Of a stretch of 36,947 bases of DNA, positions 1 to 36,947 are shown one piece after another. Under the pieces are notes generated by a model. That model was not told where the DNA came from. It ran no database searches and was given only the letters and a program-made list of their open reading frames with translations. How positions within the stretch are numbered: position 1 is the first letter of the stretch; the number at the start of each line of letters is the position of its first letter. The position numbers were made by a program, and so were the translations under genes. The stretch spans positions 1 to 36,947 of the IMG/VR virus record IMGVR_UViG_3300012346_000313; one strand, 5' to 3'. This stretch comes from a virus. Lineage: Duplodnaviria > Caudoviricetes.

Positions 1-55
1 GAAAAGAGAATAGGTATTTATGGGCGGCCTGAATATATTTGGGAAATTTGCTAAC
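1..55. repeat. Terminal direct repeat, left copy (circular overlap)
   Basis: 1-55 is identical to 36893-36947 (GAAAAGAGAATAGG...TTTGCTAAC). Confidence 0.97.
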
Positions 56-142
56 GTTTCGTGTATGAGCAGTGGCACTTGTACACACTTTCAAATTAGC
101 ACTAAACTATCCGTGCCATTGCTTATACACGGTGTTATACGC
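47..142 (-). mobile_element. attC-like recombination hairpin 1
   Basis: TTTGCTAAC (47-55), an 18-bp stem 61-78/113-130 with two G.T wobbles on the + strand, then GTTATACGC (134-142). This is the AAC...GTT architecture of integron attC sites. Confidence 0.75.
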
Positions 143-528
143 TTTTATATTTTAAATTATGGAATCAATTATAGAAAGACAAAAAATAGACTGCAATTGT
201 AATGACTGTAAGCACATGGTTAGAAATCAAGAAAAATTTAAACAATCACTTGAATTTCAACAAAAAATGCAGTTTGATTATTTTACAACCATAAAAAACA
301 AACTCATTAAAAAAGCAAATGAGTATAAAGATAGATGGTATGATTTAGAAAACTGGGATAGGCTTTTAACCAAAGCCGAAAATATGAAATTCCAATTTGA
401 TAAGTCAGCAGCAAGTATCAATTTTGGAACTTGCTCAAAACTTAGCAGAGAAGTATCATTTATCCCCAATATATGTCAATTAGAAACTCAGGAATGTTTT
501 TTGCATCGCAGGGACTAATTGCGTATAA
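55..528. mobile_element. Integron-like gene cassette 1 (474 bp)
   Basis: GTTATACGC (134-142) and GCGTATAAC (521-529) are exact reverse complements flanking a single ORF. The left junction is at the TAA|C stop of the upstream gene. Confidence 0.7.
159..518 (+). CDS. Cys-rich hypothetical protein (cassette 1 cargo)
   Basis: 119-aa ORF with CNCNDC near the N-terminus and three more Cys near the C-terminus; possible metal binding. Confidence 0.75.
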   Translation: MESIIERQKIDCNCNDCKHMVRNQEKFKQSLEFQQKMQFDYFTTIKNKLIKKANEYKDRWYDLENWDRLLTKAENMKFQFDKSAASINFGTCSKLSREVSFIPNICQLETQECFLHRRD

Positions 529-578
529 CTGAGAGATAAAATCCGTTTTTTTAATGGATTTTATCGGGAGTTAGCAAA
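521..578. other. Short attC-like/recipient hairpin
   Basis: AAC-tgaga-GATAAAATCC (535-544), loop, GGATTTTATC (556-565)-ggga-GTTAGCAAA (570-578). The last motif is complementary to TTTGCTAAC (47-55). Confidence 0.6.
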
Positions 579-588
579 ATTGAAAACA

Positions 589-1026
589 ATGAGGAAATTA
601 GAAACTTACGGCAAGGTGGAAAACGGTATCTTAAAAATAAGTTACCGGGATAAGTTCAAAGATGCTTTAAAACTCTTTCCAGATAGCCGTATTCTGCTCA
701 CAATCGAAAAGCTATACAAACATAACTCCAAAGAGCAAAGAGGCTACTATTGGGCTGTAATTGTTTATCTTTATAAATTGGGAGCTTGGGAAACTCAACA
801 GCGTCAAATTACAGCGGATCAAGCACACAACGAATTGAAATTAAATTGTAACTTTGACGAAAAGTACAACGAAAAGACGGGCGAAATGGCAAGGTTTATA
901 AACAGCTCAGAACAAACAACCGTTGAACGTGAGGAATATCACACAAGATGCAGGCAGTTTATTTTAGACTGGTTTGGGATTGATGTACCCCTCCCGAATA
1001 CTCAAATGAAATTATTTTTAAAATAA
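589..1026 (+). CDS. NinB/YbcN-like recombination-associated protein
   Basis: EQRGYYWAV and SSEQTTVEREEY...FGIDVPLP resemble NinB-like motifs. ATG 589 preferred over TTG 580. Confidence 0.55.
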   Translation: MRKLETYGKVENGILKISYRDKFKDALKLFPDSRILLTIEKLYKHNSKEQRGYYWAVIVYLYKLGAWETQQRQITADQAHNELKLNCNFDEKYNEKTGEMARFINSSEQTTVEREEYHTRCRQFILDWFGIDVPLPNTQMKLFLK

Positions 1027-1739: not shown

Positions 1740-1921
1740 TTTATCAATGTATCTGGATATTGAACGCTTTATTTTGGTTGGTAGTGATATTTTGCTTACT
1801 TCCTGTTTTCGCTGCCATTTGGTTACTAAGGGCAGGCGGAGAATGGATAGACCCGAAAACAAAACAGGACATGAAAGAATGCGACCAATATACCTACGAC
1901 CATGAAGAGCCATTACAATGA
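1736..1921 (+). CDS. Small membrane protein
   Basis: Hydrophobic N-terminal half; ATGA overlap with the upstream stop. Confidence 0.55.
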   Translation: MIYQCIWILNALFWLVVIFCLLPVFAAIWLLRAGGEWIDPKTKQDMKECDQYTYDHEEPLQ

Positions 1922-2573
1922 TGAAATACCGGCTAAATGGATTGTGGAGTTTGATTTCTGGAATGAATTTTTTTATTATTTGATGTATGTACCGATTAAA
2001 TTAACACTTGAAATTATGAAACCAGGTTACTGTGAAGAGTCAACAATTTGGATTAAAGATGAAAAGTTTTTCAGGCAATATGTCGCTTTTATAGGTCACG
2101 GGCTACGGGGTACGATGGCCGACATTGGAAAACCCAACGCTAAAATGGAATATCTTAGTAAATCATTTTTATCATATATTAATCAGATTGATGAAGGTGA
2201 TTTTAATTTTGATCAAATTTGCGATATTAAAGGTAACGATATTAAATTTGATATTGTATTTTGTTTTGAGATTTTAGAACATTTACAAAATCCTTTATGG
2301 TTTGCGACACAGCTAAAAAGAACTATGGCAGAATGCGGCACGTTGTTTTTATCTTTACCGGGCCGGCCTAAATTACTATGGACCGAACATCATTTCAGGG
2401 AGTACACTCCGAAAGAGTTAAACAAATGGATTCTTGAGCCTTTAGGACTTGTGATAATACGCAAAAAGAAATTAAGGATAACCCGCCCATTCTGGTTTTA
2501 CCTGACCGGAATACGCCCATTTTTAAGGATATTTTTTGACTTTACATGGATTTACGAAATAAAATACAAATGA
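1902..2573 (+). CDS. Class I SAM-dependent methyltransferase (start may be ATG 2016)
   Basis: MADIG motif I; FDIVFCFEILEHLQNP and GTLFLSLP are typical of Methyltransf_11/23 glycan/small-molecule methyltransferases. Confidence 0.8.
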   Translation: MKSHYNDEIPAKWIVEFDFWNEFFYYLMYVPIKLTLEIMKPGYCEESTIWIKDEKFFRQYVAFIGHGLRGTMADIGKPNAKMEYLSKSFLSYINQIDEGDFNFDQICDIKGNDIKFDIVFCFEILEHLQNPLWFATQLKRTMAECGTLFLSLPGRPKLLWTEHHFREYTPKELNKWILEPLGLVIIRKKKLRITRPFWFYLTGIRPFLRIFFDFTWIYEIKYK

Positions 2574-3472
2574 AAAACTGTATTCACTTTATCAAAGAAT
2601 CAACTTTCATTGAACGTGACCGGGTTTTACTCAATGCCACGATGTTTAAATTCAGAGGCTTTGTAAATCAGTTACTCGATTTATTATTTACAGGCTTCGA
2701 TAATTACTTCATTTGGTTTGCTGATTACCATGCTTTATTACCGGTTCTATGGGCTAATTTCAGGCATAAAAAGAGCTTTATAATAGTTGGTGGCCATGAC
2801 GCTTACAACCTGCCTGAGTTAAAATATGGGCTTTGGTACGGCAAAGGAATAAAGAAACGGATCCGGCGGGCAATGGCAAAAATAGCCCTCCGGAAATGCA
2901 CTAAGATTTTCACCGTAGCTGATCACTTGCGGGATAACCTGATAGGATTTGGAATAAATGGAAGTAAAATTCACACTATTTTACAATCGGTTGACCCTGA
3001 TTTTTGGACACCAGAACCCATTGAAAGGACTATTGATTATTTAACCGTTGGTTATGTCAGTGATTTACAAAGTTATCACCGGAAAGGGATTGATAGATTT
3101 ATCGGAATGGCAATTAAAGAGCCAACAAAGATATTTTGGCTTGTAGGTTATACTTATGACAAAATTATCCTTCCTGGAAATGTAGAAGTTTTACCCTCAG
3201 GCAATATCAATGAACTGAAAAGGCTTTATAATATGAGTAAAAATTACTGCCAGTTTTCAAGAGCAGAAGGCGGAGCAAATACACTCGTTGAGGCTATGTT
3301 CATGGGCTGCATTCCTATTGTATCAAGTGACGTTCCTTTTATGACGTGGGTTACTTCCTTTCCGTTAGTTTACAATCTTTATGGCAAAAAGCAAATTGAC
3401 CGGGCAGCGTTAATAAGATACTTTGCACCCGAAAAAAGATTAAAGGATATTAAGTTTCAAATTAATAACTAA
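2570..3472 (+). CDS. GT-B glycosyltransferase (GT4-like)
   Basis: RKGIDRFI and SRAEGGANTLVEAMFMGCIPIVS (EX7E motif). Confidence 0.88.
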   Translation: MKNCIHFIKESTFIERDRVLLNATMFKFRGFVNQLLDLLFTGFDNYFIWFADYHALLPVLWANFRHKKSFIIVGGHDAYNLPELKYGLWYGKGIKKRIRRAMAKIALRKCTKIFTVADHLRDNLIGFGINGSKIHTILQSVDPDFWTPEPIERTIDYLTVGYVSDLQSYHRKGIDRFIGMAIKEPTKIFWLVGYTYDKIILPGNVEVLPSGNINELKRLYNMSKNYCQFSRAEGGANTLVEAMFMGCIPIVSSDVPFMTWVTSFPLVYNLYGKKQIDRAALIRYFAPEKRLKDIKFQINN

Positions 3473-25585: not shown

Positions 25586-25699
25586 CGTGCCAAACTATGA
25601 AAGTTGTCGGTGATATATTCCCACCTTTTCAAGTATATGTATCATCGGTAAAAACTTGCGCAATCCGAAAACCCGATGTATCTTTGTATCGTAAACATT
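25586..25699 (+). promoter_or_regulatory. Promoter module A
   Basis: CGTGCCAAAnTATGAAA-N7-GTGATAT-N23-TATCATCGGT, then TTG (25656)-N20-TATCTTTG (25679)-N4-GTAAACATT. Confidence 0.8.
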
Positions 25700-26524: not shown

Positions 26525-27157
26525 ATGAAAAAAATTTTATTAATTTCTTTGGCTATCCTGTTAATTGCAGGGGCTTACGTCGGTGGCTGCTCACGTGGCG
26601 GTTACAAACAAGGGTTAAAAGACGGCAAACTTATCGAGCGGTTGAAACTCGGTAAAGTATGGGATTCGATCCAGTTTGCCGAAACGAAGAAAAAGATGGA
26701 CGGGTTCAAACTTACAAACGACGCTTTACAGCGTGAAATAAGCACGTATAACAAAGCCATTAACGAAACAAGGGTATACTACCAAAAGAAGTACAACGAC
26801 CTTAAAAACATGACCGGAAGGGATATAGACAGCATTTACAGATTATATGCTGGTGATTCTTTGCAAGCGGTTCAAAACTTTGTCAGTTTGGATGAATGTA
26901 AACAGGTTTCACGGATGCAGGACTTGGAAATAAATACTCTAAAGAAAAAAGACCTGAACAGCCAGCAAATAATTAATGATTTATACGCTTCGATTGAAAA
27001 GGATAAAAACGAAACTATTGAACTTCGTGACCAGGTTTCACAGTTAACAACAGATTTAACAGCGACAACGGAAAAGATGAAACGTAGAACTAAGCAAAGA
27101 AACATAACTTGGCTCGGGGTTGGGGTTTTGGTGGCTGGGTTTATTTTATTGCGTTAA
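26525..27157 (+). CDS. Spanin-like protein (signal/lipobox, coiled coil, C-terminal TM)
   Basis: MKKILLISLAILLIAGAYVGG-C; long heptads; WLGVGVLVAGFILLR C-terminus. Confidence 0.6.
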   Translation: MKKILLISLAILLIAGAYVGGCSRGGYKQGLKDGKLIERLKLGKVWDSIQFAETKKKMDGFKLTNDALQREISTYNKAINETRVYYQKKYNDLKNMTGRDIDSIYRLYAGDSLQAVQNFVSLDECKQVSRMQDLEINTLKKKDLNSQQIINDLYASIEKDKNETIELRDQVSQLTTDLTATTEKMKRRTKQRNITWLGVGVLVAGFILLR

Positions 27158-27254
27158 CGGCTGGCGGTATGGTTTAGTAAAGCCTGACCACTACCGCCAG
27201 ATTGAAACACAAAAGTTAATTCAGGCTTTATTAACTATACCGTTTGTTAGCGTT
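27151..27254 (-). mobile_element. attC-like recombination hairpin 2
   Basis: GCGTTAAC (27151-27158), stem 27164-27187/27221-27243 with G.T wobbles and one bulged T on the + strand, then GTTAGCGTT (27246-27254). Confidence 0.75.
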
Positions 27255-27487
27255 TCGTTTTGAGCGTTGGCGGTACAAAATTCAAACAAAATGGCAGTAG
27301 TAAAAGCAGTATTTAAAGCAGGAGCAAAATTAGAGGAATGTAGATTTGCCCCTTACGAAGGTGATATTGTATTTATAATTGATGATGACATTCTTATACA
27401 TGAATATGAAATAATTGAGGACTTCGATGTCGAATATTATAAAGAAATATTTGAAATTATTGAGAGCGTTGGCTAAATGAACGCTAA
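27158..27487. mobile_element. Integron-like gene cassette 2 (330 bp)
   Basis: GTTAGCGTT (27246-27254) and AACGCTAAC (27480-27488) are exact reverse complements around one ORF. The left junction is at the TAA|C stop of the spanin-like gene. Confidence 0.7.
27291..27476 (+). CDS. Small acidic protein (cassette 2 cargo)
   Basis: 61 aa from ATG 27291; 16 Asp/Glu versus 5 Lys/Arg. Confidence 0.65.
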   Translation: MAVVKAVFKAGAKLEECRFAPYEGDIVFIIDDDILIHEYEIIEDFDVEYYKEIFEIIESVG

Positions 27488-27516
27488 CTATATTATAACA
27501 GTAATTTGTACGGCAC

Positions 27517-27687: not shown

Positions 27688-27801
27688 CGTGCCAAAGTAT
27701 GAAAAATAAAAGTGATATGTGTATTTAAAAATGTGGGAATATATCATCGGTTCAAAAGAATTTCGTATTATTATAAAGTCTAATTTTGGCGGGTAAACAT
27801 T
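27688..27801 (+). promoter_or_regulatory. Promoter module B
   Basis: Same boxes and spacing as module A; TAATTTTG at 27781; central core inverted. Confidence 0.8.
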
Positions 27802-29969: not shown

Positions 29970-31361
29970 ATGACAAAACAAGCAAGTTTATTTCAGGATA
30001 AAGTTGAATTTATCTATGTAGAATCGGTTATTGGTTCAGGTTACGAAAATCAGGTTGCTGAATTAGCAATAATTGATAAGGTGGCTTACAGAGCAGCCCG
30101 TAAAAATATGCAAATTCATTCGGCTATAATTCTAAAAATTAACGATGAGTTTAGCGGGTTTTTTACCTTCCAGGTTAATCACGAAGTTGGCGAATTTTGC
30201 CTTTTACAATCGGCAATGAGTTTGGATAAAAAAGACAAGGAAATTTATAGTAAAATGGTGGGTAAAATAATTGAACAAAACACCTTTGGTTATCCTATGA
30301 TAATGACCGTATCAACTAAACATGATTTGGAAAATCCAAAAGTTTTCGAGGCAATCGGTTTTAAAACTTACTTAAATCTTAGTGGTTTTGCTTACATGGT
30401 TTACGGCAAATTAGAGGATGTTAGAATGAAAATTCTGGCTCATATCACAATGACAAACGTCTGGAATACAACTAAAGGTGATTGGTTACGATTAAAAGCT
30501 GAATGGAATGATAAAATAGAGGCTGCGGGTGAAAAGTACAATATTGCTAATCCTAAATTTGCATCACGTGAAGGATGTTGGCAGGGTGAAAGCGGTTTTT
30601 CAAACGTTGTTTTAACCGAAAGAAGTATTGAGGCTGGCGAAATAAAAGTTGATAAAGGGCGGTCACACAATGGCAATGCGTCGGTACTTGATCCGGTGGC
30701 TTGTGAGGTTATATTAAGATTCTTTATGCCAACTGAAGGAAAACGGGTTTACAATCCTTTCGGGGGTGGAGTCCAGTTTGGATTTATAACTGGTGCTTAT
30801 GGTTATGAATATATTTCAAGCGAAATAAGGCAAAATCAATGCGACGTTAATAATGCACTTTGCCAGGATTTCGGGAGTGCTAAATGGATTAAAAGCGATT
30901 CGGCAACCTATGAACCTGATGGAATGTTTGACCTTGTGTTTACTTGTCCACCTTATTACAGAGTTGAAAAGTACATTGATTATGATGGAATTATTCCGGC
31001 GGGTGAAATTAACTCTTTATCGACGTACGAACAATTTCGTGATACTTTATTTGCAGGCTATAAAATTGCATTAAATCATTTAAACGATAATTGTTTTTTT
31101 GTTGTAATGACAGGTGATAGTAGGGATAAAAACGGTTCTTATTATTGTTCTGAAAGTGAAACGGAGTTGTTTTTTAAAGAGCAAGGATTATCGGTTTATA
31201 ATAAGATAATTTATTTAGAGTGCGAATTTACAAGGCTTGCTCAGGCAAAAAAAACACTTAACTATCGTAAATTTCCTAAACGTGAGCAAAAAATAATAGT
31301 TGCTTATAAGGGTAAAATTGATAAAATAAAGGAGTTATACAAGTCAGTTGGGCGGTTGTAA
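29970..31361 (+). CDS. DNA amino-methyltransferase with N-terminal GNAT-like domain
   Basis: Motif I YNPFGGG, motif IV TCPPYY. The N-terminal ~150 aa has a GNAT-like pattern (DEFSGFFTF...VFEAIGF). Confidence 0.78.
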   Translation: MTKQASLFQDKVEFIYVESVIGSGYENQVAELAIIDKVAYRAARKNMQIHSAIILKINDEFSGFFTFQVNHEVGEFCLLQSAMSLDKKDKEIYSKMVGKIIEQNTFGYPMIMTVSTKHDLENPKVFEAIGFKTYLNLSGFAYMVYGKLEDVRMKILAHITMTNVWNTTKGDWLRLKAEWNDKIEAAGEKYNIANPKFASREGCWQGESGFSNVVLTERSIEAGEIKVDKGRSHNGNASVLDPVACEVILRFFMPTEGKRVYNPFGGGVQFGFITGAYGYEYISSEIRQNQCDVNNALCQDFGSAKWIKSDSATYEPDGMFDLVFTCPPYYRVEKYIDYDGIIPAGEINSLSTYEQFRDTLFAGYKIALNHLNDNCFFVVMTGDSRDKNGSYYCSESETELFFKEQGLSVYNKIIYLECEFTRLAQAKKTLNYRKFPKREQKIIVAYKGKIDKIKELYKSVGRL

Positions 31362-32239
31362 TGGAATTTAAGTCAGCATATAAACAACTCAATCGGAAAG
31401 TTAATACATGGTGTAAATATACCAAGCGGTTAGATACTTATGGAATGGGTTGCCAACACGGTTGTAAATATTGCTACGCTAAAGGGTTGTTAAATTTCAG
31501 AGGAAAGTGGAATGAATACGAACCTTTAAAATCTAATTTAATGGACATTGTAAAAAAGATTAAATTACTTCATTCGGGTTGTGTTGTTCGGATGGGTTCA
31601 ATGACTGATTGTTTTCAACCAATGGAAATTGAAAACAGGATAACTTATCAAACCATAAAATTATTGAATCATTACAAAATACATTATTTAATTATTACTA
31701 AAAGTAACCTTGTTTCAAAAGATGAATACCTGCAAATTTATGATAAAAATTTAGCACACTTTCAAATTTCAATTACTTCAACGGATAATGAAATTTCATC
31801 AAAATATGAAAAAGCGTCACAACCAAGTGAACGAATAAAATCAGTTGAAAAACTCTTTTCACTTGGATTTGATGTTTCAATAAGATTAAGTCCTTTTATC
31901 GAGCAGTTTATTGACTTTGACATACTTAATAATATCAGTTGCGATAAGATACTAATTGAGTTTTTAAAGGTTAATTACTTTGTTAAAAATTCATTCGATA
32001 TTGACTATTCAGATTGTATGGTTAATTGCGGTGGATATAAGCATTTGCCACTATTTAAGAAGTTGCAATTAATCAAAAAGGTTAATGGATTTAAAGAGGT
32101 TTCGGTGGGTGAATATGTCAAAGAACATCACGAATATTTTAAACAAAATATTAATTACAATAAAAATGACTGTTGTAATTTAAAACTAAATTTTCGACCA
32201 ATTTATAAACAATTAGAGTTATGGAATCAATCGAATTAA
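31361..32239 (+). CDS. Radical SAM protein (SplB-like)
   Basis: GCQHGCKYCYA (CxxxCxxC), GSMTDCFQP, IITKS, IRLSPFI. Confidence 0.9.
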   Translation: MEFKSAYKQLNRKVNTWCKYTKRLDTYGMGCQHGCKYCYAKGLLNFRGKWNEYEPLKSNLMDIVKKIKLLHSGCVVRMGSMTDCFQPMEIENRITYQTIKLLNHYKIHYLIITKSNLVSKDEYLQIYDKNLAHFQISITSTDNEISSKYEKASQPSERIKSVEKLFSLGFDVSIRLSPFIEQFIDFDILNNISCDKILIEFLKVNYFVKNSFDIDYSDCMVNCGGYKHLPLFKKLQLIKKVNGFKEVSVGEYVKEHHEYFKQNINYNKNDCCNLKLNFRPIYKQLELWNQSN

Positions 32240-35644: not shown

Positions 35645-36280
35645 ATGAAACGAAGGTTAAAATTAGAAAACGGTCAAAGGGTTGGTAAATTTACAGTGCT
35701 TTATGAGGTTGAAAGGCTTTCACTTCCTTGTGGTCAAAAAAACAGGGCTTTTCGTTGCCTTTGTGATTGTGGAAATGAAAAAATAGTCAGATTATCGCAC
35801 TTAACGAGGGGTAAAATACAAAGTTGCGGACACTGTAACGGAATAAATGGATTCGTAGGAACAAAAATTCACAACGTATGGCGGGGTATGTTGAACAGAG
35901 TAAAAGATTCTTATTTTCAATCACACCTTTACAACCAAAAAGGAATAATAGTTTGCCCTGAATGGAAATCATTTAAAGTATTCAAGGAATGGGCTTATAA
36001 CAATGGATTTAATGATTCTTTATTTATCGATAGAATTGATAACTTAAAAGGTTATTATCCTGAAAATTGCAGGTTTACAACTTCGCAAATAAACTGTTCA
36101 AATAGGGATAATACTTTTATGGTTAATTTCAATAATGAATTGATACCATTTACGATTTTGTTAGATAAATTGGATAAAAGAAAACACGCCGGAGCTATAA
36201 GAGGAAGAATAAAAAGAGGGTGGAATCATCAATTAGCTGTTATGTTACCGATTAGGGAAGGAAACTATTACAGGAAATAA
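35645..36280 (+). CDS. HNH-type homing endonuclease
   Basis: CLCDCG, SCGHC, GIIVCPEW, IDRIDNLKGYYPENCRF. Confidence 0.85.
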   Translation: MKRRLKLENGQRVGKFTVLYEVERLSLPCGQKNRAFRCLCDCGNEKIVRLSHLTRGKIQSCGHCNGINGFVGTKIHNVWRGMLNRVKDSYFQSHLYNQKGIIVCPEWKSFKVFKEWAYNNGFNDSLFIDRIDNLKGYYPENCRFTTSQINCSNRDNTFMVNFNNELIPFTILLDKLDKRKHAGAIRGRIKRGWNHQLAVMLPIREGNYYRK

Positions 36281-36298
36281 TCAATAAATACAAATAGC

Positions 36299-36460
36299 AT
36301 GAAAGAAATAATTAGGACAATAACATATTTTGTAATACTTGTACTGTTTGTAATTGATTATTTTATAACAAAAAATAAGATGGAAACTTGCATATTTTGG
36401 ATTGTTATAATAGGTTTTAATATTTGGTATGAGATTCAAATTTTAAATAAATACAAATGA
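36299..36460 (+). CDS. Small 2-TM protein (53 aa, not in ORF track)
   Basis: MKEIIRTITYFVILVLFVIDYF...IFWIVIIGFNIWY. Confidence 0.5.
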   Translation: MKEIIRTITYFVILVLFVIDYFITKNKMETCIFWIVIIGFNIWYEIQILNKYK

Positions 36461-36461
36461 C

Positions 36462-36620
36462 ATGGAAGAGCAATATTCAGCCGAATGGAAAAAGGAATTA
36501 ATGAGAATTAGTTTTAATGATTTAGAAAAGATTTTTACCCCGATGAAAAAGGAAAAAGGCGAGTTAAAAAAAGACTTCATTGAAAGGATTGAAAAACATT
36601 TACGGACTAAAAATAAATAG
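36462..36620 (+). CDS. Small charged protein (52 aa, not in ORF track)
   Basis: MEEQYSAEWKKELMR... fills the gap between neighbours. Confidence 0.45.
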   Translation: MEEQYSAEWKKELMRISFNDLEKIFTPMKKEKGELKKDFIERIEKHLRTKNK

Positions 36621-36622
36621 CC

Positions 36623-36946
36623 ATGTACGATTTATTCACTAATGCAGAAGGAGCTTTTTCAGATCAAAGTTTTTATAACACCACGCACGAAAAAGGCGAA
36701 ACGCTTGAGGTATTCCACCGGAAAGCGGACAGGCAAGATATGAAAGTATTAAATGCTTTTTCAATTTTTTTAAAATTATCACCAGAAGAATGTTGGAAAC
36801 TATTTTATTTTCAGGAAAAAGGAGTTCCATTAACAAGTATTCGCCGGTCAATAACGAACCTAACAAAAGCCGGTAAGCTGGTTAAGACCAACGAAAAGAG
36901 AATAGGTATTTATGGGCGGCCTGAATATATTTGGGAAATTTGCTAA
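36623..36946 (+). CDS. Winged-helix-like DNA-binding protein
   Basis: LTSIRRSITNLTKAGKLVKT...GRPEYIW. Confidence 0.6.
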   Translation: MYDLFTNAEGAFSDQSFYNTTHEKGETLEVFHRKADRQDMKVLNAFSIFLKLSPEECWKLFYFQEKGVPLTSIRRSITNLTKAGKLVKTNEKRIGIYGRPEYIWEIC

Positions 36947-36947
36947 C
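36893..36947. repeat. Terminal direct repeat, right copy
   Basis: Identical to 1-55. Confidence 0.97.

Follow-up and report, generated by a model that had tools for sequence, protein, structure and literature searches.

An integron-like gene cassette in a phage without a recombinase, and its relatives in Bacteroidota and their viruses

How does a phage that encodes no recombinase come to carry a gene that is bracketed like an integron cassette? The question is raised by the beginning of a 36,947-nt contig of a tailed phage (IMG/VR record IMGVR_UViG_3300012346_000313; hereafter, the window, by which we mean the whole stretch of DNA analysed). Recombination of folded single strands has been tied to extrahelical bases in the site and to the IntI insertion, which IntI uses to read single-stranded attC. 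Integrons are reported to be rare in Bacteroidota, and the IntegronFinder 2.0 paper names one complete Bacteroidetes integron, in Salinibacter ruber. Here we argue, at a probability of about 0.6, that positions 55-528 of the window are a cassette belonging to an integron-like system shared by Bacteroidota and their phages, likely inserted at AA|C on the folded + strand by a recombinase supplied in trans, which would also excise it there. If so, this would be a second cassette system, missed by IntI and attC profiles; it would be a site-specific source of phage mosaicism, working even in phages that lack the enzyme, and would offer a small recombinase-hairpin pair usable like synthetic attC sites. 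The window adds the case of a phage that has no such enzyme yet holds two cassettes, both sited at native stop codons. Its contig breaks on the crossover base, and the acceptor has an arm that matches a resident gene.

The phage and the anatomy of its first cassette

The window codes for terminase, portal, protease, capsid, tape measure and tail spike; no endolysin was recognised among the 48 ORFs scanned; all its long ORFs lie on the + strand. A 55-nt terminal repeat (1-55 and 36893-36947) yields a circle of 36,892 nt; CheckV puts the completeness of the contig at 50%, and a second assembly carries the identical cargo protein on a contig of 36,922 nt, that is, the 36,892-nt circle plus 30. 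The original prediction spoke of a phage without an integrase, and this is what the searches returned: no tyrosine or serine recombinase was detected among the 48 ORFs or in six-frame searches for PF00589 and PF00239, and tblastn of the window with the cassette recombinase described below gave matches at E>=0.5 only. The host is probably a member of the Bacteroidota, because all eight genome stretches that were found to contain the hairpin arm belong to this phylum. The features around the first cassette, all on the + strand, are as follows.

47..55, +: left R-like box TTTGCTAA|C, with the putative crossover between 54 and 55; it doubles as the end of the terminal repeat
53..136, +: long attC-like hairpin, 84 nt, with AACG, a 5' bulge, a 19-bp stem, two family G·T pairs and a closing TGTT
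55..528, +: cassette 1, the putative mobile unit of 474 nt, comprising the long hairpin, a leader, the cargo ORF and the end of the bracket; the unit is judged from relatives, by their array polarity and by pairs with a shared cargo
134..142, +: GTTATACGC, which opens the cargo bracket and is the complement of 521-529
159..518, +: cargo ORF, coding for a Cys-rich protein of 119 aa (CNCNDC...C...C..HR) whose family is widespread in phages
521..529, +: end of the bracket, GCGTATAAC, also GCGTATAA|C, with the putative right crossover between 528 and 529
527..578, +: short resident site and candidate acceptor; it measures 46 nt from its AAC to its GTT, behind which AGCAAA matches 47-52
589..1026, +: NinB/Orf-like gene (phrog_72, E 9e-6) downstream of cassette 1, with an ATG at 589 (the ORF list starts it at TTG 580)
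36623..36946, +: HTH-like gene, 107 aa (phrog_9069), upstream of cassette 1, wrapping through the 55-nt terminal repeat

Everything that had been read from the letters is present in the sequence, namely, the hairpin, the ORF 159-518, the complementary bracket, and the restoration of a hairpin upon removal of 55-528 with the upstream TAA kept. The brackets GTTATACGC and GCGTATAAC each occur once in the window genome. The long hairpin, spanning AAC 53-55 to GTT 134-136, folds as DNA at -16.2 kcal/mol on the + strand (z -3.06; 1 of 200 shuffles equally good) and at -14.0 kcal/mol on the - strand (z -1.84). Excision of 55-528 leaves a closed hairpin of -16.9 kcal/mol and retains the TAA at 52-54. 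The arrangement, which can be written as x'-AAC hairpin GTT-y ... y'-AAC hairpin GTT-x, permits two excisions, however: 55-528, with AA|C on +, and 135-570, with G|TT on +, the latter also leaving a closed hairpin, of -23.3 kcal/mol, with complementary ends. Since both removals restore complementary ends, complementarity alone does not define the mobile unit. The second removal would correspond to a canonical cassette, in which the ORF travels with the short hairpin downstream of it, crosses over at G|TT on + and leaves the long hairpin behind, in line with the textbook order of gene, then attC. The choice between the two units comes from the relatives.

A family of hairpins and the piece that moves

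A 25-nt pattern from the arm of the window hairpin was found in 2 IMG/VR contigs and in 8 Bacteroidota genome stretches. Hairpins that match 76-82 of the 84 bases of the window hairpin and stand ahead of other cargo occur in five phage or phage-like loci, and the host copies, 123-127 nt long, have the same arms. The phage contig L033 contains at least 11 cassettes in an array that ends at a 267-aa tyrosine recombinase. Among the best 80 of the 228 relatives of this recombinase, near-duplicates included, hairpins lie upstream of the gene in 68 loci and downstream in 13; 11 of the 12 loci without upstream hairpins have less than 400 nt of flank. In cultured phages (INPHARED), there was no hairpin match at E<=1 and no match of the 267-aa recombinase at E<=1e-40.

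A consensus was built from 48 of 71 hairpins of 80-92 nt, with those near the window's left out. In this consensus both partners have changed in 18 of 25 pairs, a count that is inflated by the choice of hairpins with a stem detector, and the stem has no bulged bases. One G·T pair is invariant (48/48), a second is found in 46 hairpins and a third in 29; here, the detector leaves the skew unaffected, as it scores G·T and A·C alike. Both the window hairpin and the 48-sequence consensus have a continuous stem of 19-20 bp and no extrahelical bases near the L box. Scored with a covariance model made solely from other phages' hairpins, window positions 50-139 reach 79.1 bits on + and 26.1 bits on -. 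Some hairpins of 120-200 nt (L069, L082, L110, L134) seem to hold a short ORF or an ORF start in their loop.

Could the hairpins be, instead, RNA elements, such as a terminator or a Flavo-1-like motif, or MITE-like repeats, with the brackets being incidental? There is a T-rich run behind the long hairpin, and MITEs are reported to be common to Bacteroidota and their viruses (PMC11602168), so that some of these could be the hairpins described here. The RNA-element reading meets, however, with the finding of no intrinsic terminator (short GC stem, 3-8-nt loop, direct T-run) in 1-1200, with the lack of any Rfam match at E<=1, both for the window and for three related loci, and with the fact that the matches of Flavo-1 are different sequences; identity with the Flavo-1 RNA (RF01705) was itself rejected, as its covariance model was not matched. 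As for MITEs, no target duplication surrounds 55-528 beyond the shared TAAC, and the boundaries in relatives lie at AA|C. Either version has to cope with the opposite orientation of the hairpins to the genes in phages and hosts and with the linkage of the arrays to a recombinase, and we regard both as very improbable. A literature search, with subscription journals mostly outside its reach, found no description of this cassette system, and the supplements of the MITE paper may list the hairpins.

The piece that moves can be judged from pairs of loci that share a cargo. Sixty such pairs were found, 49 of them clonal and 11 with a differing flank. The upstream hairpin is kept in all 11 informative pairs (0.98-1.00 in 10 of them; 0.75 in a pair with 86% identity), whereas the downstream site differs in 9 of the 11, with the divergence setting in within a few bases after AAC; these pairs represent some 6-7 independent events, several of them with a near-invariant 46-nt hairpin. 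In L078, L090, L091 and L112, identical cassettes appear in differing order. As these comparisons indicate, cassettes in the relatives move as units that consist of a hairpin and the cargo downstream of it and are bounded at AA|C.

The contig break of the window has a bearing on the same choice. The terminal repeat ends on base 55, which is the last base common to filled and empty alleles if the crossover is at AA|C; an excision of 135-570 at G|TT would put this end at 137. Where paths branch, assembly programs often leave a loop open. Among 37 related contigs, 4 (two of them near-identical) start within 8 nt of such a junction and 2 more do so by eye, with 0.3-1 expected. The break on the crossover base may hint at a second allele in the sample, a post hoc argument resting on assembler behaviour. 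The predicted unit 55-528 with its AA|C crossover on + is, thus, backed by the shared-cargo pairs, the array ends and the contig break. The canonical unit 135-570 is already largely refuted and would be a most improbable choice: besides the behaviour of the shared-cargo pairs and the position of the break, it faces last cassettes that end at hairpin-less sites and a second cassette of the window that has no hairpin downstream.

This second cassette and the site that ends it are placed as follows.

27158..27487, +: cassette 2, 330 nt; hairpin 27156-27248, ORF 27291-27476, bracket GTTAGCGTT/AACGCTAAC
27485..27504, +: hairpin-less attI-like docking site TAA|C TATATTATA, which ends cassette 2

Cassette 2 starts at the stop TAA of its upstream gene, ORF 26525-27157; its hairpin scores 39 bits on + with the covariance model, a search with the same model found no hairpin downstream of it, and its ORF codes for 61 aa with no family match. 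On a profile of 41 phage docking sites, the site at 27485 ranks first among the 417 TAAC sites of the genome, although no recombinase stands behind this orphan attI-like site. Of the 55 distinct last brackets in the phage relatives, 44 terminate no further than 70 nt from the recombinase, at an unfolded TAA|C site of the TAT-ATATA type. None of the 55 phage docking sites folds, whereas in 11 of 25 host loci the 52 nt that follow the first candidate site do fold (z<=-2.5); these 25 come from 30 loci examined, 5 of which had no candidate, and some candidates are not the true site. In four loci (L063, L068, L087, L109), the last cassette before the recombinase is empty, its 23 nt of cargo being the loop motif of the 46-nt hairpins, a motif hinting that the loop and cargo positions may be homologous.

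Strand polarity and the linked recombinases

With loci oriented by the recombinase, G·T pairs mark the recombinase strand in 250 of 272 phage hairpins and the opposite strand in 9; an alternative count of 232:8 is partly built in, since there the majority skew had itself set the orientation of the loci. Among 255 phage cassettes of at least 150 nt (including three phage-like contigs from MAGs, judged to be phage), 200 have the ORF on the G·T strand, 7 on the other strand and 48 on neither. The host hairpins (n=22) show the reverse, with the ORF on the non-G·T strand in 14, on the G·T strand in 0, and no near ORF in 8. Classical attC sites have 1.24 G:T pairs on the bottom strand versus 0.39 on the top (PMC5027507). 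By analogy with these sites, it holds that the + strand would be bottom-like and the phage cargo reversed, as had been proposed; the skew in relatives agrees with the first claim, and the opposite placement of cargo in phages and hosts with the second. Given that the cargo lies on the phage coding strand and that the site is a native stop, early-operon transcription would read the cargo without disrupting a gene.

The recombinases beside the arrays have 267 aa in phages and about 377 aa in hosts, with about 345-380 aa in the host loci that were examined. In the class to which Gelidibacter belongs, 67 of the 201 genomes drawn hold a relative at E<=1e-50, a tally that includes the unpublished G099. 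Hairpins were found near the host recombinase in 7 of 10 wider regions, and in Gelidibacter maritimus the hairpin that closes the first cassette, next to a 376-aa recombinase, has the 24-nt arm of the window hairpin. In the host loci that were examined, the recombinase has the direction of the cassette genes and precedes the array; in L173, L175, L177, L179, L180, L181 and L053 it is, accordingly, inverted relative to classical intI, and palindromic docking sites often lie behind it. The phage recombinases stand downstream of the array, on the G·T strand.

The trans-acting enzyme had been predicted to be IntI-like, and this part did not withstand the comparison. The linked enzymes score 154.7-204.8 against a TIGR02249 cut-off of 265, and they lack the IntI insertion: 35 residues, versus 83, separate the blocks matched to IntI4. 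Both the phage and the host enzymes align collinearly and without a gap to archaeal XerA and are split against IntI4 at its insertion; their best profile and PDB matches are XerA-like (NF040815). The phage enzyme consists of SAM_4 and integrase domains, which are also given for the host enzyme, and the linked gene is separate from XerC/XerD of the same genomes. The short phage-encoded recombinase is as good a candidate for the enzyme as the host one.

These features invite the suggestion that the enzyme acts in the Xer/dif fashion on double-stranded or cruciform sites, the strand skew being a by-product of transcription or replication. The collinearity with archaeal XerA, the missing IntI insertion and the sites without extrahelical bases would suit this suggestion. 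It does not sit well, however, with stems that vary freely in sequence while pairing is kept, nor with G·T pairs fixed on one folded strand only; furthermore, the G·T strand is coding for the phage cargo but template in hosts, and therefore transcription cannot account for the skew. Action on double-stranded DNA thus appears improbable.

In the folded-strand scenario that we prefer, the + strand would extrude as a hairpin, and the recombinase would recognise the AAC/GTT box together with a stem that is distinguished by the fixed G·T pairs and the 5' bulge rather than by flipped-out bases. One strand would be exchanged between A and C, with a 474-nt circle released or taken up and the short site 527-578 serving as the acceptor. 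The enzyme would come from the host chromosome (about 377 aa) or from a co-infecting phage (267 aa), acting in trans.

Such a system works like an integron but is not one. It shares with integrons, such as those of class 1 and the sedentary ones of Vibrio, the AAC/GTT core, the complementary cassette ends, the folded site with a G·T-richer strand and the AA|C crossover on that strand, as well as, in relatives, arrays that end at an unfolded docking site beside a tyrosine recombinase; the phage recombinase is coded on the G·T strand, like intI, which in integrons is coded on the bottom strand. In altered form, the unpaired central spacer is found as the 5' bulge, and the G·T skew marks the recombinase strand. 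The correspondence fails on the enzyme, which lacks the IntI insertion, on the extrahelical bases, in place of which there are fixed G·T pairs and the 5' bulge, and on the orientation of phage cargo, while host arrays keep the integron orientation. As to an attI beside the integrase, it is seen in the relatives and, as an orphan, at 27485, whereas the cassette-1 acceptor is a hybrid (see below) with no enzyme adjacent.

Cassettes on a replicon without the enzyme are also a feature of CALINs, clusters of attC sites that lack an integrase. Xer-exploiting elements such as CTXphi have their folded single-stranded phage DNA recombined in trans by a tyrosine recombinase of the host, but here there is a dedicated gene beside the cassette array, and single genes move rather than the phage genome. 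Finally, the opposite-strand reading of TAA|C agrees with the GWT consensus given for attG (bioRxiv 2022.09.11.507474). Unlike CALIN and attG insertions, however, both window cassettes end at recognisable resident sites (a short hairpin and an attI-like site, respectively) and not at bare genomic triplets, and neither the sites nor the enzyme are the same.

The acceptor site and the arrival of the cassette

The stop TAA of the HTH-like gene (36944-36946, equal to 52-54) is the TAA of the left crossover. Among the 15 homologues of this gene that were listed, 3 share its W/Y-x-I-x-stop end position and a fourth has WELK as its last residues; going by these homologues, TAA 52-54 would be the native stop position of the family.

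The short hairpin at 521-578 has a z of -4.81, with 0 of 200 shuffles as good, and the short site scores 21.7 bits (E 0.006) on a short-hairpin model, a score that an unrelated AT-rich stretch equals (22.1 bits). The latter, at 36364-36409 on the - strand inside a 53-aa ORF, may be a chance match or a decayed site. Like the short attC of the family, the site has 46 nt from AAC to GTT and a CGTTTT..AATG loop; in common with the host docking sites, its AAC is followed by a T and, five or six bases further along, ATA...TATC delimits a stem. It begins with AACT and ends with AGTT, whereas family hairpins have a G after AAC in 241 of 254 cases and a T before GTT in 245 of 254. On the phage docking profile it ranks 61 of 417 TAAC sites. 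In its sequence features, then, the short site reads as a hybrid between an attC and a host docking site. Two pattern scans found 0 copies of it in IMG/VR. The formal possibility that it is the attP of the phage, with the whole genome as one giant cassette, was rejected: the outer bracket fits formally, but the site lies mid-operon, and the idea is unsupported and of negligible probability.

The right arm of the short site pairs with the end of the HTH-like gene by 6 pairs beyond the AAC/GTT core, a match reached by 1.85% of unrelated cassette ends and, in linear arrays, by 3 of 275 hairpins. The arm may have been copied from the HTH-like gene or selected for its match to it; alternatively, a circular cassette carrying that gene may have recombined into the phage.

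An empty allele with the short hairpin had been predicted, and a precise one was not found among the IMG/VR relatives; in IMG/VR, the downstream gene has no relative and the upstream gene a single distant one. In the nearest relative, L030, both flanking genes (88% nucleotide identity in the downstream gene, 79% in the upstream one) are joined directly, with neither hairpin, and in L029 the upstream gene is a different one and the region is mosaic. As L030 lacks both hairpins, the cassette entered a resident docking hairpin and not a bare stop codon, or else the whole block arrived together. The notion of an insertion at a stop codon therefore stands in so far as the native stop of the HTH-like gene is concerned, and has to be given up as to a bare stop.

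The arrival of the whole block deserves to be taken seriously, even if we consider it unlikely: the cassette would be genuine, but a block of about 45-588, consisting of the cassette and the short site, would have come from another phage by homologous or micro-homology recombination and would now be a passenger. In line with this, the whole block is missing from L030, the region is mosaic in L029, and the phage encodes a YqaJ exonuclease together with the NinB-like protein. There is also a precedent: L027 is without a 1.49-kb block of cassettes, docking site included, that L025 and L026 carry, with an 8-nt overlap at the ends. The match between the right arm of the short site and the end of the native HTH-like gene, in contrast, suggests that the site formed with that gene, and the contig break at the crossover base also speaks against a passenger. 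In the L025/L027 comparison (L025:2744-4233 versus L027:2736-2743), the missing block starts at AA|C and the 8-nt repeat lies at its flanks.

The cargo itself bears on how cassettes are made. Its family comprises 139 homologues, the alignment of which shows six nearly fixed cysteines and a C-terminal HR, and the protein, modelled with a pLDDT of 87.9, is probably metal-binding, with a variable coiled-coil insert; it had no match in Pfam, PHROGs, the ESM Atlas, or in Foldseek searches against PDB and BFVD at E<=0.001. Of 27 IMG/VR loci of the family, 2 (one sequence) lie between hairpins, 3 just upstream of an array, and 22 have no adjacent hairpin by eye. The 119-aa cargo is, on this distribution, an ordinary phage gene that is sometimes packaged as a cassette, and the family is found mostly outside cassettes.

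It can be envisaged, as a rather speculative extension to which we give a low probability, that cassettes are manufactured in place: the arm of a live docking hairpin would be copied from a phage gene, and an IntI-independent single-strand system would make circular cassettes that are traded among phages, with the enzyme in trans. If true, this would provide a testable route by which integron-type cassettes acquire cargo-matched ends.

Elsewhere in the window, methyltransferase-like, glycosyltransferase, DNA methyltransferase and radical SAM genes are found at 1902-3472 and 29970-32239, and there are several HNH-type nucleases. Promoter-like regions around early genes (25586-25644 and 27688-27749) are linked by a 31-nt direct and a 37-nt inverted repeat (81%). 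Short repeats of the form AAATA-AAAT-GCATG lie at gene starts (36275-36306, 36438-36469 and 36608-36625), and two small ORFs at 36299-36620, between the first and the last copy, are absent from L029 and L030, which suggests that modules may be exchanged at the boundaries of these repeats.
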